This document shows, in pieces, positions 4,459 to 20,486 of a stretch of DNA of 28,518 nt. The stretch comes from a bacterium BMS3Bbin02. Its GTDB lineage: Bacteria > Actinomycetota > Acidimicrobiia > Spongiisociales > UBA5794. Location of the stretch: NCBI GenBank assembly GCA_002898115.1, contig BDTL01000238.1, positions 1 through 28,518 of the forward strand. Reading direction: 5' to 3'. Position numbers and translations under genes: made by a program. Below the pieces are notes generated by a model. It worked only from the letters and a program-made list of their open reading frames with translations. It was not told where the DNA came from and ran no database searches. Every line of letters starts with the position of its first letter. Position 1 is the first letter of the stretch.

Positions 4459-5229
4459 TTACAACCCAGCCAGGAAGTCGTCTTCTTCGGCGACTGGCTC
4501 CGCGCCTAAACTCTTGCGGAGGGCGTCGTACCCACTGGATTCGAGCTCCTCGGCGACCTCAACTCCGCCGCTCTTGACGACACGCCCATCAATCATGACG
4601 TGCACACGATCCGGTTTCATGTAGCGCAGAATCCGGCTGTAGTGAGTGATGAGCAGCACCCCGAGATCAGGAGAGCGTAGCTCTTCGACCAGCTCGGCGA
4701 CCTCACGAACTGCATCTATGTCGAGGCCCGAGTCGATCTCGTCGAGAACAGCGATCTTCGGTTGGACCGCAGCAAGTTGCAGCATCTCGGAACGCTTCTT
4801 CTCGCCACCGGACAGCTCATCGTTGACCGACCGGTTCATGAAGTGTTCCATGTTCAAAGACTCGACGGCCGCGGTGGTGCGCGCACGAAACGCGGCAGGG
4901 TCGGGAGAAGCTTCGGCCATTTCGTCCAACAGCTCCTCAAGCAGCACGCCACCGATCTGTACCGGGTATTGGAAAGCCTGGAAGACGCCGGCGCGCGCCC
5001 GTTCATCAACGGGCATGCCCGATATGTCGATTCCGTCCACAAGGATCGTCCCGGTTGCCTGGTAGTCATCCTTACCGGTCAGGACATGACACAACGTAGA
5101 CTTCCCGGAACCGTTGGGACCCATTAGCACGTGGACCTCCCCGGCGGGTACCTCGAGGTCGACACCCTTCAGGATTAGCAAATCGCCGATCTTGGCTTCA
5201 AGCGACCGAACGGAAAGAGCAAGGCTCAT
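4459..5229 (-). CDS. sufC: Fe-S cluster assembly ATPase SufC
   Basis: 256 aa. Walker A GPNGSGKST, FQAFQYP, LSGGEKKR signature, Walker B VLDEIDSGLDIDA and ITHYSRIL. Adjacent to sufD. Confidence 0.93.
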   Translation of the reverse strand: MSLALSVRSLEAKIGDLLILKGVDLEVPAGEVHVLMGPNGSGKSTLCHVLTGKDDYQATGTILVDGIDISGMPVDERARAGVFQAFQYPVQIGGVLLEELLDEMAEASPDPAAFRARTTAAVESLNMEHFMNRSVNDELSGGEKKRSEMLQLAAVQPKIAVLDEIDSGLDIDAVREVAELVEELRSPDLGVLLITHYSRILRYMKPDRVHVMIDGRVVKSGGVEVAEELESSGYDALRKSLGAEPVAEEDDFLAGL

Positions 5230-5546
5230 GTCTGGTCCTCTCCGATGACGAGCATGACGTCGCCATCCACAACATTGATTTCATACACAGGCACGGGCTG
5301 GGTCGCCGGCAACGCCCCGGGTTTGCCGGTCTCCAGCGAGAACTCTGAACCATGACGAGGACATTCCACGTCACCATCAAAGACCTCCCCCTCCGCGAGC
5401 GAGGCTTCGGCGTGGGAGCATCGGTCGCCGATCGCATAAAACGTGTCCTCGATACGAAAGACTGCGACGCGGTGCTCTCCAACGTCAACGCGTACTCCCT
5501 GGTTCTCAGGAAACGCATCTACATCGCCGATCCGGACGGCTGCCAT
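5226..5546 (-). CDS. Rieske [2Fe-2S] ferredoxin
   Basis: 106 aa. CSH...CPRH Rieske ligands. Overlaps both sufD and sufC, the usual position in actinobacterial suf operons. Confidence 0.9.
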   Translation of the reverse strand: MAAVRIGDVDAFPENQGVRVDVGEHRVAVFRIEDTFYAIGDRCSHAEASLAEGEVFDGDVECPRHGSEFSLETGKPGALPATQPVPVYEINVVDGDVMLVIGEDQT

Positions 5547-6805
5547 CAGACGCGCCCTTCGGACTGAGCGGCAACAAACTTCTTGTTGACGGCAAGCCGA
5601 AGTTCGTCGCGAATGTTTCCGTGGGGTACCTTCACCAGCGCCTCCTCAAAGAAGCCCTTCACCTGGAGACGGTCCGCCTGCGCCTTGTCCAGACCTCGGG
5701 ACATGAGGTAGTACCTTTGGTCTTTGTCGAGAGGCCCCATTGTCGAACCGTGACCACAGCGCACATCGTTGGCGAGAATCTCCAGGTTTGGGACGGACTG
5801 GGCGCTCGCGCCATCCGACAGAATAAGATTGCGGTTCGTTTGGTGAGCGTTGGTCTTTTGGGCGCCCTCTTCGATACGAATCAATCCGGTGAACACGGAT
5901 TCGGCGTCGTCCTCGACGGCTCCCTTCAGAAATATGTTCGACGTGGTGCCAACACCAACATGATCGAGGAAGTAGCGATAGTCGAGCACTTGATCGCGGT
6001 CTCCGAAGTAGGCGCCAATGATCTCCATGTGCGATCCATTGCCGATGAGGTCGGCATCAAAGCGAACTCGCGAGTACACCCCACCAAGACCAATCTCGGT
6101 GAACGTGCCGGTGGCGTTGTCGTCGAGCGTGTAGAACACGTCGGCAATCGCCCTGGTCTTGTCGCCCCATTGCTGCACGACGGTGAGCTTGAAGTGCGAG
6201 TTCTTCCCAATCGACACCTCCAGCTGTGACAGGACAACGGCATCGACCTCCTCGTGTGACGCGAAGTAGACGATCGCCGAAGCCTCAACATTGTCTTCTA
6301 CGACGACAGTGAGATGAGGCAGGCTGACCGTACCGGATCGGGTGGCACTGATCTCGACCGTGAACGGCTCCTCGACCGCCGTCCCGGAACTGATGTGAAG
6401 GAACGCGCCATCGCCGGCGAACGCCCGGTGGATCGCGGCAAAGACATCACGGTCGGCAGGAACACCGCTTCCGAATTTCCCACTGACACAAGGCTCAGTG
6501 GTGTTGCGAGCCGATCCGAATACCACACCGTTCGGCAGGTCGCTCACTAGTTCGCCCATCGCCCCGTCAGTGATGGCAAGTGCCCCACGGGCCGAGCGGA
6601 AGGGTACGTCGAGAGCTGAGGGTACGCCGCTGGTGGCTAGGTCGAAGGATCCAATGTCGAATCTGAGATCGACGTAGCGCCATTCCTCCTGTTTGGCGGA
6701 CGGCATGGACAGGTCTGCAAGAGCTGCAACACCTGACTGCTGGAGGTCAGCGAGCCATGTCGGCAGCGTAGGATCGATTGGGGGGTGCGACTTGAGCGAA
6801 ACCAC
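5546..6805 (-). CDS. sufD: Fe-S cluster assembly protein SufD
   Basis: EEWRYVDL, QTNRNLILS, SVPNLEILANDVRCGHGST and YLMSRGL motifs. Start placed at GTG 6805 because SD GAGGAG lies 4 nt upstream; ATG 6835 is an alternative and the ORF track extends to 6883. Confidence 0.88.
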   Translation of the reverse strand: MVSLKSHPPIDPTLPTWLADLQQSGVAALADLSMPSAKQEEWRYVDLRFDIGSFDLATSGVPSALDVPFRSARGALAITDGAMGELVSDLPNGVVFGSARNTTEPCVSGKFGSGVPADRDVFAAIHRAFAGDGAFLHISSGTAVEEPFTVEISATRSGTVSLPHLTVVVEDNVEASAIVYFASHEEVDAVVLSQLEVSIGKNSHFKLTVVQQWGDKTRAIADVFYTLDDNATGTFTEIGLGGVYSRVRFDADLIGNGSHMEIIGAYFGDRDQVLDYRYFLDHVGVGTTSNIFLKGAVEDDAESVFTGLIRIEEGAQKTNAHQTNRNLILSDGASAQSVPNLEILANDVRCGHGSTMGPLDKDQRYYLMSRGLDKAQADRLQVKGFFEEALVKVPHGNIRDELRLAVNKKFVAAQSEGRV

Positions 6806-6829
6806 GTGTCTCCTCGGGGAATCAGACGC

Positions 6830-6850
6830 CGACATAGTAGTGGCATGTCG
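6830..6850 (-). promoter_or_regulatory. Putative sufD promoter -10 inside a 6-9-6 inverted repeat
   Basis: Minus-strand TACTAT at 6834-6839, within CGACAT-N9-ATGTCG, about 30 nt upstream of the SD-supported GTG. Confidence 0.4.
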
Positions 6851-6879
6851 CGGCGGTCGAGCCGGTACGACAGACCCGA

Positions 6880-7569
6880 TCACGAGCGAAGGTGGCCTCG
6901 AGCTTCGCGGAATACATCATCAAACATGGCCTCGGTGAGACGACCCGTAAACGTGTTTTGCTGACTCGGGTGGTACGACATCACGATGGTGAGGTTACCC
7001 AATCCAATGGCAGCGCTGTGCGTAAATCTCGGCCGAGGTCGTGGAGTCTCGTACCCCTGGTCGGCAAGGAACCGCCACGTCGCCAGATATCCGTATTGAC
7101 CGAGACACACGATGACTTGTTTGTTCGTCAACAGAGCAAGCTCACGCGCCAGAAACGGTGCACAAGCATCACGCTCGACCGGCAGGGGTTTGTTGTCGGG
7201 CGGCGCACACCGAACCGGTGACGTCACCCACGCGTCCGTGAGCACAAGGCCGTCGTCGCGATCTACGCTGGTTGGTTGGTTGGCGAATCCGGCGGTATGC
7301 AGTGCTCGGTACAGCCAGTCGCCCGAACGATCCCCGGTGAACATTCGCCCGGTACGGTTCGCACCGTGCGCCGCGGGAGCAAGACCGACGACCAGGAGGC
7401 GGGCCGCAGGGTCACCGAAACCCGGAACACCCCTCCCCCAGTACTCGTGATCGACGAAAGATGCTCGTTTCACTTCTGCGATGTGCTCGCGCCAATCAAC
7501 GAGCCGCGGACACAACCGACATCGGGCAATCTCGGTAGCCAGACCGGCAAGGTCCGTCACACGGTCCAC
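6880..7569 (-). CDS. udgB: Uracil-DNA glycosylase, family 5 (UdgB type)
   Basis: 229 aa. CRLCPRL Fe-S motif, GLAPAAHGANRTGRMFTGDRSG, VRCAPPDNKP and YHPSQQNT. Confidence 0.88.
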   Translation of the reverse strand: MDRVTDLAGLATEIARCRLCPRLVDWREHIAEVKRASFVDHEYWGRGVPGFGDPAARLLVVGLAPAAHGANRTGRMFTGDRSGDWLYRALHTAGFANQPTSVDRDDGLVLTDAWVTSPVRCAPPDNKPLPVERDACAPFLARELALLTNKQVIVCLGQYGYLATWRFLADQGYETPRPRPRFTHSAAIGLGNLTIVMSYHPSQQNTFTGRLTEAMFDDVFREARGHLRS

Positions 7570-14582: not shown

Positions 14583-15242
14583 CTAGAACAGTCGCAGGTG
14601 GGGTGAGTCGATGCCGCGCAAACGGTCGTAATCGATCTCGACCCAGGTGATGCCGCGGTCTTCGGCCAGCACGCGCGCCTGGGGTTTCACGACCTGCGCG
14701 ACAAAGATACCCCGTACCGGAGCGAGCCTGTCGTCGCGGTTAAGGAAGTCAAGATACCGGGTGAGTTGCTCCACACCATCTATCTCGCCGCGACGTTTGA
14801 CTTCGATCGCCACGGTACCGTCGTCATCGGCGCGACACAGCAGGTCCACGGGCCCGATCGGAGTCGGATATTCGCGCCGGATCAACTCAAGGCCCTCTTC
14901 GATCTCCTCGGGATGGTCGGCCAGCAACCGCTGGAGATCCGCCTCGACGCCGTCTTTCTGAAGCCCCGGGTCGTCGCCGAGTTCCATAGCAGTCTCGAAA
15001 AAGATCTCCCCAAATGTGATCGTCAACGTCTCCCCCTTCGGATTCGTCACAACCCACCGCTGACCGTCGTCGATGAGATGGTTGGGGGCGTTCATCCAGT
15101 TGAGTGGTTTATACGCACCACCATCGGCATGAACCGCTACACAGCCATCTGCCTTCACCATGACCAGACGGGTCGCCAAAGGAAGATGGGCGTTGAGCCG
15201 ACCCTCGTAGTCGACCGTGCATTGGGCAATAACAATCCGCAT
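14583..15242 (-). CDS. nucS: Mismatch-specific endonuclease NucS/EndoMS
   Basis: 219 aa. [55 protein letters not shown] and C-terminal clamp-binding-like LRLF. Confidence 0.93.
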
Positions 15243-15295: not shown

Positions 15296-15910
15296 CTAGC
15301 GGGCAACGCCCACTGCAGCCAGCACGGCGGTTGTGCAGCGTTGGCGGTACTCGGCGTGGGAGTCTTCCCAGTCGGCGCGTTGTAACCATTGCAAGAAAAA
15401 GCCCTCAACGATGGCCCGCATCGTTGCTGCGGCTTCCGTCAGATCGGTCGCTGGGATCGAGCCCGCGTACATTGCTTCGCCGAGGATCTCTGCATAGTGC
15501 CCCTCGATGATCTCGGTCGCGGTTGCGCCAAGGCTATCGAAACCATCGACTCGCGTCTGGTGCTCAACGCCATCGAGATAGAACCTGAAGAAATCCCGAT
15601 TCGCTTGTGGGTTGCGCCACACGGCCGCTACCACGGCTCGGATCGCATCCAGCGTGTCCTCACTCGATTCGACCGCAGCCCGCAGCCTTCTCGCGGTACC
15701 GCGCAGCACCCACTCCAGGGCCGCAAGAACAAGAGCATCCTTGGAGCCGTAGTGATACAACACAAGACCCTTGGAGACACCTGCCTCGTCTGCGACCTCG
15801 GTCAACGGAACCCGATGCACGCCACGGCGCGACATCACTCGGTAGGCAGCTTTGACGATCGAGAGGCTGCGCTCCTCAATCGACGCTTCCGCCGCCGTCA
15901 GAGCCGCCAT
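15296..15910 (-). CDS. TetR/AcrR family transcriptional regulator
   Basis: 204 aa. N-terminal HTH VADEAGVSKGLVLYHYGSKDAL. Starts 6 bp after the boxB stop. Confidence 0.9.
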   Translation of the reverse strand: MAALTAAEASIEERSLSIVKAAYRVMSRRGVHRVPLTEVADEAGVSKGLVLYHYGSKDALVLAALEWVLRGTARRLRAAVESSEDTLDAIRAVVAAVWRNPQANRDFFRFYLDGVEHQTRVDGFDSLGATATEIIEGHYAEILGEAMYAGSIPATDLTEAAATMRAIVEGFFLQWLQRADWEDSHAEYRQRCTTAVLAAVGVAR

Positions 15911-15916
15911 GGCGTC

Positions 15917-17362
15917 CTACGGCAGCTTGACATAGAGAAAATCCTCGGGTTTGTTCTGGATACCCTTGGACGGAGGGGCGATCCAGCTCGCATACTCACC
16001 CGCCTCGAACTTGGAGTTCATCAGACTCTCGATGTGTGCCCGATCGGCGACCGTCGGGAGCCACTCATCAACAGCAGCTTCCCATTCATCGTCGGTGAGC
16101 AACTCTCCAGTTGGCGATGTGTTGAGATCGGAGAATTCGCCGATCTCTCGGTTGAACGCAACGTGCGGCAGCCTGATCTCGAAATCGATGCCCGCGCCGG
16201 CGATCACACGATTCCAGCGAGCTACCCCTCCCTGGCAATCGTCGATAAAGTCGTCGCGCAGCCTTGCGTTGAGCGCGATGAGAGCAGGAACGTCGACCGA
16301 GCGGAAACGACCATCCACCAGCTTCATGACCGGGTAGGTATCGTTGATGAGACGATGGTCATCGTCGAGTTGTGACTCGTGGTACCGACCCTTGATCCCG
16401 GCGTTGAAGGCGTTTGCGGCGTTCGTCGACTCCTCCGATCCGAAGAGATCTAGCGTCAGAGAGAAGTGCTGGTTCGTTTTTCGCTGAACTGTCGGCAGAT
16501 CGATCACACCAAGCGGGCGAATCGCCTCGAGGTCGTACGGATCCTCGATCCCCGCCGCTTCCATTGCCTCGACCGTCGCCTGAACGACACGCCGAATACC
16601 GGTGTAGCCGACAAACATGTGATGCGCCTCCTCGGCGAGCATGAAGCGGCAGGTTCTACTTAGCGGATCGAACCCCGACTGTGCCAGTGCCTCAAGCTGC
16701 ATCTTCCCGTCGCGGTCGGTGAAGTAGGTGAACATAAAGAACGACAACCAGTCGGGCGTTTCTTCATTGAACGCGCCGAGCATTCTCGGACGATCGTCGC
16801 TTCCCGACTGGCGCTCCAATAACGCACCGGCCTCCTCGCGACCATCCCGACCAAAATACTTCTGCAACAAATAGACCATCGCCCACAGATGACGCCCCTC
16901 CTCCACATTGACCTGAAACAGGTTGCGCAGGTCATAGAGAGATGGGGCCGTTGCGCCGAGGAACCGCTGTTGCTCGACCGAAGCCGGCTCCGTGTCACCC
17001 TGGATCACAATGAGTCGTCGCAGCAGAGCGCGATATTCGCCCGGCACCTCCTGCCACACCGGCTCACCTGCGTGCTCGCCGCAGGGAATCGTACGCCCCT
17101 CGACCGCGGGCGCGAGCAGAATCCCCCACCGGTAGTCAGGCATCTTCACGTAGTCGAACTGTGCCCAACCTTCGTTCTCGACACTGACGGCGGTCCGCAG
17201 AAACACGTCCGCGGCCTGAAAACCCTCGGGTCCCATCGACATCCACCAGTCGATATAGCCGGGATGCCAAGCCTCAAGTGCGCGTCGCAGCTTCGGGTCG
17301 TCGGCTAGACCGACATTGTTCGGAATCAGGGCGTCGTAGTCAACCTTCTCTGAACTCGTCAC
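15917..17362 (-). CDS. boxB: Benzoyl-CoA 2,3-epoxidase subunit B (di-iron)
   Basis: IPNNVGL, MPDYRWG, and di-iron ligand motifs QGDTEPAS, EEGRH, FTDRDG, EEAHH. Start placed at GTG 17362 with SD GAGGAG, directly after the boxC stop; the ORF track starts at 17431. Confidence 0.92.
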   Translation of the reverse strand: MTSSEKVDYDALIPNNVGLADDPKLRRALEAWHPGYIDWWMSMGPEGFQAADVFLRTAVSVENEGWAQFDYVKMPDYRWGILLAPAVEGRTIPCGEHAGEPVWQEVPGEYRALLRRLIVIQGDTEPASVEQQRFLGATAPSLYDLRNLFQVNVEEGRHLWAMVYLLQKYFGRDGREEAGALLERQSGSDDRPRMLGAFNEETPDWLSFFMFTYFTDRDGKMQLEALAQSGFDPLSRTCRFMLAEEAHHMFVGYTGIRRVVQATVEAMEAAGIEDPYDLEAIRPLGVIDLPTVQRKTNQHFSLTLDLFGSEESTNAANAFNAGIKGRYHESQLDDDHRLINDTYPVMKLVDGRFRSVDVPALIALNARLRDDFIDDCQGGVARWNRVIAGAGIDFEIRLPHVAFNREIGEFSDLNTSPTGELLTDDEWEAAVDEWLPTVADRAHIESLMNSKFEAGEYASWIAPPSKGIQNKPEDFLYVKLP

Positions 17363-17363
17363 G

Positions 17364-19010
17364 TCACACTCTCCTCTTGTCATATTCGGGACGCAATCCT
17401 GTCCCGTATCGGCGCAGCGCTCCGGTTTCACCAGAAGCGCTTGGCCGTTGAAACACCCAGTTCTGCCAGGCCGTCAAGCGACCAAAGATCTTTGTCTCCA
17501 ACGTCTCAGGGCCGGGGAAACGAAGGTTCGCCTCCATTGCGGTGAGACAGTCCGGACTAAACGAGGTGCGCTCCTCAAGGATAATCCGCAGCTCGTCATC
17601 CCAGTCAATGTCGTCATAGATCTCGGTGACCAGCCCCGCCTCCATCGCGGCGTCAGCGTCGAGCCGTACGCCAATTGCATCCTCCGCGGCCCGCAATCCC
17701 TCCTCGTCGCCCCAGAATCGAGTGGCTAGACGGCTCAATCCGTTCGACATCGGGAGCACACCACGGCTCGAATCGGTGAGAGCGAGCACGGCGAGGCGGT
17801 CGTCGTCCTCAGTGGTACCAAGGAACATGTACGTCCGGTCACTCGCGAGTCCGAGCTCCGCGAGCGTTCCCCCGAAACACGACCCCGGTTCGATCAGCAC
17901 AACGATGGTACGCGACGTGACATCGAGCCGTTTGAGGACCCGTCGCCAGAACAACATCACCTCGTTGACGAACCAGTGGCCGGCGTGCTCATGAAGAAAG
18001 CGGTCGTGATCGAGAACCGCATCGAGATCTCCTTCGGTACGAATGATCCAGGTACCGATCTCCAGCTCGTTGACCCGCAGATGGAGGATGGCGTCGTCAA
18101 GTTCACGAGCTAGCCGCAGTACCCACCAGTCGGCGCCGGCCGACACCGCACCCTCGGGATCAGCAGGAGCAGAGTCGGTGGGGCCTTTGATCAGGATCTC
18201 CGCAGTTCGAGCATCACGATCGATGGTGACCGCCACAGAGGAGTAGTCGACACCATTCTCACCAAACATGCGGTTGAGCGGAGTGAGGGTGACGCCCGTG
18301 GCTTCGGCCGGCCGCAGACTGGCGTTGGCGAATTCCGCGGCCCGATCGGCAACTCGCTCGTTAAAGGTCGACCCGGGTACAAGTTCGTCGATGAGTTTCC
18401 ACTCGACCGCCCGCGAGCCCTTGATACCTTCTTCGATCGTGCAAAAGACGTCGGCTCGATCACGGCGAACGAATCGCTTGTCAACAAGGCGTGTCAACCC
18501 GCCGGTGCCAGGCAGGACCGCAAGCAGAGGGACCTCAGGGAGCGCAACGGATGCACTACCGTCATCGATCAGCATGATGTAATCGGTCGCCAGCGCCAAC
18601 TCGTAACCACCACCGGCCGCGGTGCCGTTGATCGCTGCCAGATAACGCTGCCCGGACTCGGCAGTGGCCTCTTCGATCCCGTTGCGCGTCTCGTTGGTGA
18701 ATTTGCAGAAATTGACTTTGAGAGGGTGTGGGGCCCCCGCCAACATCGAGATGTTGGCGCCCGCACAGAACACGCGTTCCTTCATCGAGCCGAGCACAAC
18801 GGCACCAACCTCGGGGTGTTCGAAACGCAGCCGTTGAATCGCGTCAGCTAACTCGATGTCCACACCGAGGTCGTAGGAGTTCAACTTAAGTTTGTAGTCG
18901 CCATGGAGCCCACCGTCGGGATCGACGTCCATGTCGAGCGTGGCGACACGACCGTCGACGGCCAATCGCCAATGTCGGTACCGATCGGGATGGGTTTGAA
19001 AATCAATCAC
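17364..19010 (-). CDS. boxC: 2,3-epoxybenzoyl-CoA dihydrolase
   Basis: IDFQTHPDRYRHW, LKLNSYDLGVDIELADA, KVNFCKFTNETRN, LPEVPLLAVLPGTGG and C-terminal TAWQNWVFQRP. Start placed at GTG 19010 on leaderless-promoter evidence; the ORF track starts at 19058. Confidence 0.92.
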   Translation of the reverse strand: MIDFQTHPDRYRHWRLAVDGRVATLDMDVDPDGGLHGDYKLKLNSYDLGVDIELADAIQRLRFEHPEVGAVVLGSMKERVFCAGANISMLAGAPHPLKVNFCKFTNETRNGIEEATAESGQRYLAAINGTAAGGGYELALATDYIMLIDDGSASVALPEVPLLAVLPGTGGLTRLVDKRFVRRDRADVFCTIEEGIKGSRAVEWKLIDELVPGSTFNERVADRAAEFANASLRPAEATGVTLTPLNRMFGENGVDYSSVAVTIDRDARTAEILIKGPTDSAPADPEGAVSAGADWWVLRLARELDDAILHLRVNELEIGTWIIRTEGDLDAVLDHDRFLHEHAGHWFVNEVMLFWRRVLKRLDVTSRTIVVLIEPGSCFGGTLAELGLASDRTYMFLGTTEDDDRLAVLALTDSSRGVLPMSNGLSRLATRFWGDEEGLRAAEDAIGVRLDADAAMEAGLVTEIYDDIDWDDELRIILEERTSFSPDCLTAMEANLRFPGPETLETKIFGRLTAWQNWVFQRPSASGETGALRRYGTGLRPEYDKRRV

Positions 19011-19045
19011 GACGACAAGATAGACTGACCGGTCGGTCAGGACAA
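19011..19045 (-). promoter_or_regulatory. Leaderless sigma-70 promoter of boxC with a TetR-type operator in the spacer
   Basis: Minus strand TTGTCC-N17-TATCTT-N6-GTG. The 7-2-7 palindrome CTGACCG-GT-CGGTCAG (19025-19040) fills the spacer. Confidence 0.7.
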
Positions 19046-19082
19046 GTGGGTCGCCCAAGCGTGTGCAGTGATCGCGGTCGGA

Positions 19083-20486
19083 TTAGCCGACCGAGCCTTC
19101 CATTTGGAGTTCGATCAGGCGGTTCAACTCGACGGCGTACTCCATCGGGAGTTCCTTCACGATCGGTTCGATGAAACCGGCAACGATCATCGCCATGGCT
19201 TCTTGCTCGGAGAGCCCACGAGCCATTAGATAGAACAACTGCTCGTCACCGACCTTGGAAACCGTCGCCTCGTGACCAATGTTGGTGTTCGACTCCTCGA
19301 TCTCCAGATACGGATAGGTATCGGAACGTGAATGCTCATCGAGAATCAGTGCGTCACAGCGAACAAACGAACGGGCATTTACGGCGCCATCCTCCACCCG
19401 CACCAGGCCGCGATAACCTCCGCGTCCACCATCGAGCGAGATCGACTTGGACGTGATGAGCGATGTCGTGTTTGGCGCGACGTGGACCATCTTCGCTCCC
19501 GCATCGAGCACCTGCCCCTTGCCGGCCATGGCTATTGACAACACCTCGCCGTGGGCGCCCTCTTCCATGAGCCACACAGCCGGATACTTCATGGTCAGCC
19601 GAGATCCGAGGTTGCCGTCGATCCACTCCATGGTGGCGTTCTTATAGGCGGCCGCGCGCTTGGTGACCAGGTTGAAGACGTTGGTAGACCAGTTCTGAAT
19701 GGTCGTGTAGCGACAGCGCCCACCCTCCTTGATGATGATCTCAACGACCGCTGAGTGCAGCGAGTCACTCGAGTACGTCGGCGCCGAGCAACCCTCTACG
19801 TAGTGACAGAACGCGCCCTTGTCGATGATGATCAGCGTGCGCTCGAACTGACCCATGTTCTCCGCATTAATCCGGAAGTACGCCTGCAGCGGCTGGTCCA
19901 CATGCACGCCCGGAGGCACGTAGATGAACGATCCTCCCGACCACACGGATGAATTCAACGCTGCGAACTTGTTGTCGTTCGGAGGAATGATCGTCCCGAA
20001 GTACTCCTTGACGAGCTCCGGGTAGTCACGGACCGCAGTGTCCATATCGCAGAAGATCACACCGAGCTCTTCGAGATCTTCACGGTTGCGGTGATACACG
20101 ACTTCAGACTCGTACTGTGCGGTTACGCCGGCGAGATACTTACGCTCGGCTTCGGGGATCCCGAGCTTTTCGTAGGTCTCCTTGATGGAGTCCGGAACCA
20201 TGTCCCAGTCATTGACCTGGGACTCGGTTGGCTTGATGTAGTAGTAGATGTCGTCGAAGTCGATCTCGTCGAGCAACCCGCCACCACCCCACGTCGGCAT
20301 TGGCTTGGCAAGGAACCGCTTGTACGCCTTGAGGCGGAAATTGAGCATCCACTCAGGTTCCTTCTTCATGCGTGACATCTCGCGGATGAGCGCTTCGTCT
20401 AGACCCTTTTCGGGCTTGAAGACATAGTCCTCCTCATCGGCCCAGCCGAGGGAGTACTTACCAAGATCAACATCTACAACTGACAC
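19083..20486 (-). CDS. sufB: Fe-S cluster assembly protein SufB
   Basis: 467 aa. ISRMK-like [50 protein letters not shown] and YLMARG. SD GGAGAGG upstream of GTG. Confidence 0.94.

Follow-up and report, generated by a model that had tools for sequence, protein, structure and literature searches.

A BoxA-less boxC-boxB operon with a predicted TetR-type regulator in an Acidimicrobiia-type actinobacterium

The 28,518-nt stretch of DNA analysed here, contig BDTL01000238.1 of the metagenome-assembled genome (MAG) of the bacterium BMS3Bbin02 (GCA_002898115.1), carries two genes of the aerobic benzoyl-CoA (Box) pathway, boxC and boxB, together with a tetR-family gene; the whole stretch is called the window in the following. 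According to the open reading frames (ORFs) of the window and profile searches, the gene order on the minus strand is sufB, boxC, boxB, tetR, nucS. boxC (17364..19010, minus strand) encodes a protein of 548 aa matching TIGR03222 and PDB entry 2W3P, boxB (15917..17362, minus strand) encodes the 481-aa oxygenase component of the di-iron benzoyl-CoA 2,3-epoxidase (TIGR03225), and the repressor gene tetR (15296..15910, minus strand), the last gene of the operon, is the candidate regulator of boxCB. The upstream neighbour of boxC is sufB (19083-20486, minus strand), and nucS (14583-15242, minus strand) lies on the tetR side. The longest open frames of the two enzyme genes extend further (boxC 17364-19058 and boxB 15917-17431, the latter with 504 aa, both on the minus strand). 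The start codon of boxC is most likely GTG 19010, which coincides with the start of the family model and yields 548 aa; boxB starts at GTG 17362, with a GAGGAG ribosome-binding site ahead of it and the boxC stop 1 nt before, and tetR starts at ATG 15910, 6 nt past the boxB stop. The spacing of 1 and 6 bp and the position between sufB and nucS that an initial annotation of this DNA had described were found again when the sequence was re-read. The same annotation had let the module end at 19045; no in-frame boxC start is present there, and the position belongs to the -35-like hexamer of a promoter-like element with operator (19017..19045, minus strand), which was read from the sequence. Open frames of 1060 aa in two other Actinomycetota genomes raised the possibility of a BoxC-BoxB or BoxB-reductase fusion, but boxC and boxB are read in different frames there, and the long frame is an artefact of high GC content.

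Both enzymes score far above the equivalog cut-offs of their families. BoxB reaches 843.7 bits with TIGR03225 (cut-off 499.1; model positions 1-471) and matches BoxB of Azoarcus (PDB 3PER) over its full length with 647 bits. BoxC reaches 883.6 bits with TIGR03222 (cut-off 712.3), has the double-crotonase length of 548 aa and aligns with benzoyl-CoA-dihydrodiol lyase (PDB 2W3P) over residues 2-548 with 679.6 bits. In Azoarcus BoxB, the di-iron centre is coordinated by E120, E150, H153, D211, E240 and H243, and the second-shell residues Q116, T119, S123, F193, F203/F206 and T210 orient the benzoyl group (PMC5489048). The corresponding iron ligands in the window, numbered according to the 504-aa ORF, are E148, E178, H181, D239, E268 and H271, and the benzoyl-orienting residues are Q144, T147, S151, F221, F231/F234 and T238. 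All of them are invariant in an alignment of 13 Acidimicrobiia BoxB sequences, which show a mean column identity of 78%. Because the iron ligands and the benzoyl-orienting residues of the Azoarcus enzyme are all conserved, benzoyl-CoA is likely the substrate of BoxB.

The initial annotation had considered that the enzymes might act on another aroyl-CoA. Hydroxy- or amino-benzoyl-CoA would be examples, and two observations could be taken in this sense: three relatives carry a 4-hydroxybenzoyl-CoA reductase-like molybdoenzyme and a PaaK-like ligase beside boxCB, and TIGR02262, the model that identifies benzoate-CoA ligases, describes a subfamily in which ligases acting on substituted benzoates are included. 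However, an enzyme of the Hcr type would yield benzoyl-CoA, which is consistent with benzoyl-CoA as substrate of BoxB, every ring-positioning residue of Azoarcus BoxB is conserved, BoxB and BoxC both exceed the equivalog cut-offs, and a benzoate-CoA ligase is encoded beside boxCB in relatives. We therefore regard a different aroyl-CoA as very unlikely. The molybdoenzyme consists of three subunits encoded directly 3' of boxB in the three Acidimicrobiia relatives (L030 11194-15001, L031 5283-8626 and L032 7932-11742); the top matches of the subunits are 4-hydroxybenzoyl-CoA reductase subunits, below the equivalog cut-offs (alpha subunit 822 vs 995 bits). Molybdoenzyme-like genes were also present near BoxA-less Pseudolabrys-type clusters, and none were seen near BoxA-containing ones.

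None of the window ORFs matched BoxA, a benzoate-CoA or other CoA ligase, aldehyde dehydrogenase, thiolase or BoxR in profile searches, in agreement with what had been noted from the sequence. The lack of a CoA ligase applies to the window only: contig C75 of the same genome encodes a benzoate-CoA ligase (609.4 bits with TIGR02262) followed by a Liv-type ABC transporter. Contig C35 carries paaC-paaD-paaE, and PaaE reaches 424 bits with TIGR02160 and contains FAD_binding_6, NAD_binding_1 and Fer2 domains. BoxB occurs in 16 of 61 genomes, namely in the genome studied here and in 15 of 60 relatives. In 14 of the 15 loci from relatives, boxC is immediately upstream of boxB; in the exception, L036, the contig begins ~600 bp before boxB. 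The boxCB genes of relatives are often located beside a benzoate-CoA ligase gene (TIGR02262, 619 bits), a PaaK-like ligase gene and a Liv-type ABC transporter. The named TetR homologues and the contigs with the nearest actinobacterial BoxB sequences bear the Acidimicrobiia label.

The absence of BoxA extends from the window to the assembled genome and to its relatives. The best match to the BoxA model TIGR03224 in the genome studied here had 21.8 bits, below the cut-off, and none of the 60 relatives, including the 15 with boxCB, contained a match over the cut-off. Among the BoxA-negative relatives are G010 (100% complete), G013 (99%), G005 (99%) and the congeners G001 and G002 (97%), and G002, which is syntenic over the window, gave no TIGR03224 match at all. 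BoxB was rare across the phylum, occurring in 10 of 401 evenly sampled genomes, and the eight BoxB-bearing genomes that this sample added showed no BoxA match even at an E-value of 1e-8; nor was BoxA found in two named BoxB-bearing Acidimicrobiia/Actinobacteria MAGs. Altogether, BoxA is lacking in 26 of 26 BoxB-bearing Actinomycetota genomes examined, the present one included, and as positive control the same search recovered BoxA with 522-718 bits in Rhodobacterales and other genomes. BoxR was sought as a combination of HTH_3 and a shikimate-kinase-like domain; with a proteobacterial query, the 61 genomes yielded only partial AroK- or shikimate-kinase-like or HTH-only matches, and the genome studied here yielded none. 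The proposed lack of BoxA and BoxR thus holds for the assembled genome as well as for near-complete relatives. Four of the genomes are unpublished: the BoxB-negative relatives G039 and G050, which were counted in the tallies, the BoxB-bearing, BoxA-negative genome G140 of the phylum, and G460, the Acidimicrobiia MAG with locus L047. Omitting them leaves the conclusions unchanged. With 2.22 Mb on 286 contigs and a completeness of 72.8%, the MAG leaves room for a canonical BoxA in its unassembled 27%, but the near-complete congeners, one of them syntenic, the 99-100% complete relatives and the uniform result for all 26 BoxB-bearing genomes make this explanation extremely improbable.

The initial annotation had described the BoxA-less state as an actinobacterial variant, which turned out to be too narrow. 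We collected the 80 nearest BoxB loci from a species-representative genome collection, mostly alphaproteobacterial with 66-73% identity, and examined the 78 non-actinobacterial genomes among their sources. The selection favours relatives of the query and does not extend to the betaproteobacterial clusters that served to define BoxA. BoxA was present anywhere in the genome in only 27 of the 78 (25 matches over the cut-off and two truncated at contig ends) and absent genome-wide in 51, among them isolates of Bradyrhizobium and Sedimenticola. In a BoxB tree, the Acidimicrobiia sequences formed almost one clade, and the absence of BoxA was clade-structured, requiring at least nine state changes: BoxA was absent in Bradyrhizobium/Nitrobacteraceae (20 of 20) and from Pseudolabrys-type loci (11 of 12), and was found mainly in a Rhodobacterales/Rhizobiales clade, where 19 of 21 have it. 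The BoxB of locus L088, a 6-kb contig binned as Kiloniellales, fell inside the Acidimicrobiia clade with 100% support, which is likely due to mis-binning or recent transfer. Like the operon of the window, the clusters of Bradyrhizobium/Nitrobacteraceae, Pseudolabrys-type Hyphomicrobiales and Sedimenticola contain boxC-boxB without BoxA anywhere in the genome, but most of them keep BoxR or, in Sedimenticola, a LysR regulator.

The missing genes could also mean that the cluster is a leftover that is incomplete, does not function or leads to a dead end, which is how pathway predictors interpret clusters without BoxA. Besides BoxA, no clear BoxD and no dedicated electron donor were found, and the loss of BoxA has been read as an impediment to degradation (PMC10803450). 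In contrast, the ORFs are intact, the catalytic residues are invariant across genera at the high overall identity of the 13 BoxB sequences, and there is conservation of a predicted box-specific repressor, of its putative operator and of a ligase encoded nearby. Whole clades such as Bradyrhizobium and the Pseudolabrys-type group do without BoxA, and the box cluster of Sedimenticola CUZ, described as boxB and boxC only, is expressed on benzoate with O2, where both proteins were most abundant (PMC4453571). Decay of the cluster appears very improbable. In UBA5794 Acidimicrobiia, which belong to the same bacterial class, boxBC had been reported and their horizontal acquisition suggested (PMC12008989); that study reported only boxB and boxC and, unlike the present analysis, addressed neither the lack of BoxA nor the TetR regulator and its putative operator.

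Compared with the Box system of Aromatoleum (Azoarcus) evansii and Burkholderiales (boxR, boxABC, boxD, bclA), the window contains orthologous BoxB and BoxC with the same boxC-boxB order and adjacency, the same di-iron ligands and the same substrate pocket, and a benzoate-CoA ligase is likewise present in the genome. In contrast, BoxA with its two [4Fe-4S] clusters and FAD is absent, no BoxD was recognised with the PaaN model, ligase and transporter are encoded on another contig, and the place of BoxR, which is of the XRE/shikimate-kinase type, is taken by a TetR-family protein for which a palindromic operator is predicted. The operon represents a known pathway in a variant form that is BoxA-less and, by prediction, TetR-regulated.

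The lack of BoxA raises the question of how BoxB is reduced. A different electron donor, a free ferredoxin or a Paa-type reductase, had been proposed from the sequence. BoxA is indeed absent and PaaE is present in the genome as a candidate donor, but PaaE fails as a universal partner: four BoxB-bearing relatives, G006 (95% complete), G023 (94%), G037 (92%) and G048 (84%), do not contain it. If PaaE were the reductase that specifically serves BoxB in the cells of this lineage, this would be in line with the occurrence of paaC-paaD-paaE in the genome and the score and domains of its PaaE, with the structural homology of PaaA and BoxB (PMC4498308) and with the distribution of PaaE, which is encoded in 12 of 16 BoxB-bearing and in ~21 of 45 BoxB-negative genomes. 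Against it speak, apart from the four relatives, that paaE never adjoins boxCB, that the Paa and Box systems show strict substrate separation and that BoxA has no direct similarity to PaaE (PMC4498308). We consider this assignment possible but unlikely. The Rieske protein encoded beside suf genes (5226-5546) had been named as another candidate; it occurs in 60 of 61 genomes with or without BoxB and is not specific for box clusters. Flavodoxin_1 was detected in one of five BoxB-bearing genomes (G002; not in G010, G013 and G006), and a motif scan of the genome studied here for small ferredoxins mostly returned spurious ORFs. On contig C151 of G000 (L142 468-2557), the gene for a GltD-like subunit with Fer4_20 and Pyr_redox_2 domains comes after that for a PyrK-like FAD/[2Fe-2S] subunit; this pair is of the NfnAB/SudAB type and could connect the NAD(P)H and ferredoxin pools.

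The contact between BoxA and BoxB was described as only transient, with small amounts of BoxA being sufficient, whereas BoxC co-purifies with BoxB (PMC4498308). The most economical reading is that a non-dedicated ferredoxin system supplies BoxB in this lineage. Local candidates for BoxA substitutes are found elsewhere: Pseudolabrys-type loci contain genes for a [2Fe-2S] ferredoxin, a thioredoxin-reductase-like FNR and a CysJ-like diflavin reductase, whereas none of these is located near the Acidimicrobiia clusters. In L048 (5765-7128 and 12994-14769), the ferredoxin and FNR genes lie beside boxR, and the 591-aa diflavin reductase is encoded 1.5 kb downstream of boxB. The presence of such local Fer2, FNR and CysJ-like genes in some BoxA-less proteobacterial clusters suggests that there are several independent solutions to the replacement of BoxA. 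The BoxA-less box cluster of Bradyrhizobium japonicum has a gene for a globin of the bacterial (truncated) type (L073 4136-4609) at its head, beside boxR. A more far-reaching and rather doubtful explanation is that BoxA is an accessory of some lineages only and that another partner delivers the electrons to BoxB in groups such as Acidimicrobiia, Bradyrhizobium and Sedimenticola. This partner would be either a dedicated protein from a family not yet recognised or an Fe-S protein with housekeeping functions, for example the Rieske protein linked to suf. If so, the clusters regarded as incomplete would constitute a second form of aerobic benzoyl-CoA degradation that is widespread and has a TetR-type regulator of its own.

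The TetR protein comprises 204 aa and matches PF00440 over residues 18-64 with 50.9 bits. The 72-bp spacer between sufB and boxC contains a -35-like hexamer TTGTCC (19045-19040) and a -10-like hexamer TATCTT (19022-19017), separated by 17 nt. Only 6 nt lie between the -10 hexamer and the boxC GTG, and this short distance suggests that the boxC mRNA is leaderless. The -35/-10 spacer is occupied by a perfect 7-2-7 palindrome, CTGACCG-AC-CGGTCAG (19040-19025), with the shorter operator form CTGACC-N4-GGTCAG, which overlaps the boxC promoter. The perfect palindrome has a single copy in the 2.2-Mb genome. A second site with one mismatch on contig C214, between scpB and a pseudouridine synthase gene, was taken as a chance occurrence, and no operator was seen upstream of the benzoate-CoA ligase gene on C75. 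Of 16 Acidimicrobiia loci from several genera, 9 have the palindrome, with up to two mismatches, in the 90 nt ahead of boxC, and in locus L024 the arrangement of -35, -10 and start codon is identical to that in the window. TetR orthologues were found in the relatives that carry the operator, and G013 has neither a TetR orthologue nor the palindrome.

A survey of metagenomes with the TetR alignment returned 80 loci, and in 44 of these TetR homologues with 40-87% identity were encoded beside boxB/boxC: 27 in the co-directional order boxC-boxB-tetR seen in the window, 15 divergently and 2 in other arrangements. Most spacers between tetR and boxC in the 15 divergent loci hold the perfect palindrome. 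The remaining metagenome loci comprise 8 with only a ligase gene and 28 with neither, 19 of which have less than 2 kb of flank on either side. Because the operator is conserved and tetR is syntenic with boxCB in so many metagenome loci, the TetR protein is, by prediction, the dedicated box regulator that stands in for BoxR, its DNA binding and effector being deduced from these patterns; TetR control of boxCB, as suggested initially, is supported by both the operator and the synteny. The arrangement has a counterpart in PaaABCDE with the actinobacterial TetR-type PaaR, where a di-iron CoA-ester epoxidase is likewise under a TetR-family repressor, although BoxB is of the monomeric type and has no PaaB, PaaC or PaaD partners. 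The half-sites of the palindrome resemble the ACCG...CGGT theme of PaaR operators. The TetR protein of the window showed no significant similarity (BLASTP E = 0.12) to the PaaR-like TetR with a TetR_C_24 domain encoded beside paaE in G002. The latter gene lies directly downstream of paaE (L139 527-1276) and probably encodes a PaaR-type regulator of paa, distinct from the box TetR.

The gene identities, the conservation of catalytic residues, the clade-wide lack of BoxA and BoxR, the conservation of the operator and the synteny of tetR with boxCB are direct observations. On this basis, the boxC-boxB-tetR cluster of this Acidimicrobiia-type actinobacterium is probably a functional operon that regulates itself, with its activity, effector and electron donor as the inferred parts. 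Benzoate would be taken up and activated by the Liv-type ABC transporter and the benzoate-CoA ligase encoded on another contig. Benzoyl-CoA would then be epoxidised by BoxB with O2 at the di-iron centre, and hydrolytic ring opening by BoxC would yield 3,4-dehydroadipyl-CoA semialdehyde and formate. The two electrons per BoxB turnover may come from a non-dedicated partner encoded elsewhere, either a ferredoxin/ferredoxin-reductase pair or PaaE. TetR is predicted to bind CTGACCG-AC-CGGTCAG over the promoter of the probably leaderless boxC transcript and may be released by an aroyl-CoA, most likely benzoyl-CoA.

Several observations weigh against this reading. Among ~100 Acidimicrobiia-type loci, no ferredoxin, flavodoxin or reductase gene was conserved beside boxCB in searches by tblastn with BoxA, PaaE, Fer2, thioredoxin-reductase-like FNR and CysJ-like queries, scans for Cys motifs and Pfam analysis of the immediate neighbours, and no candidate donor tracks BoxB. 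A search for BoxD in the genome studied here, made with the PaaN model only, retrieved generic aldehyde dehydrogenases with 107-139 bits, all of which stayed below the cut-off and none of which is encoded near boxCB. The proposed promoter matches the consensus hexamers only weakly; with 8 of 12 matches it fell under the threshold of a consensus promoter scan and was not called. The palindrome could also double as the terminator hairpin of sufB, as a scan recorded a weak terminator-like hairpin. Finally, at 72.8% completeness the absence of genes from this MAG alone carries little weight, and the case rests on the relatives.

The surroundings of the operon have some features of their own. The remaining window ORFs encode a fumarase, ArsR, Sir2, SufC, the Rieske protein, SufD, UDG, a DUF4015 protein, a sigma factor, Rrf2, CtaC/D/E, GltB, a GNAT protein and a luciferase-like monooxygenase. 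The suf genes are split: sufB stands alone beside boxC, and sufD-Rieske-sufC are located 12.2 kb away on the same strand (window positions 4459-6883 vs 19083-20486), behind the DUF4015 and UDG genes, whose stop and start codons overlap. The sigma factor, Rrf2, ctaCDE, nucS and the box operon lie between the two suf parts. Congener G002 has the same layout from sufB through DUF4015, the extent to which its locus L029 was fetched, and the adjacency of sufB and boxC was seen in this genus only.

Textbooks present the Box pathway as the 'hybrid' aerobic route of benzoate degradation, and pathway calls of the KEGG style treat BoxA as an obligatory subunit. Recent comparative work takes the same view (PMC10803450). 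Since the BoxA-less genomes, comprising all BoxB-bearing Actinomycetota examined and two thirds of the nearest proteobacterial ones, keep an intact and regulated boxCB, genome-based predictions probably under-count aerobic benzoate degradation, for example in marine and soil Acidimicrobiia. TetR and its predicted operator additionally provide a handle for regulatory studies and might be developed into a benzoyl-CoA biosensor.

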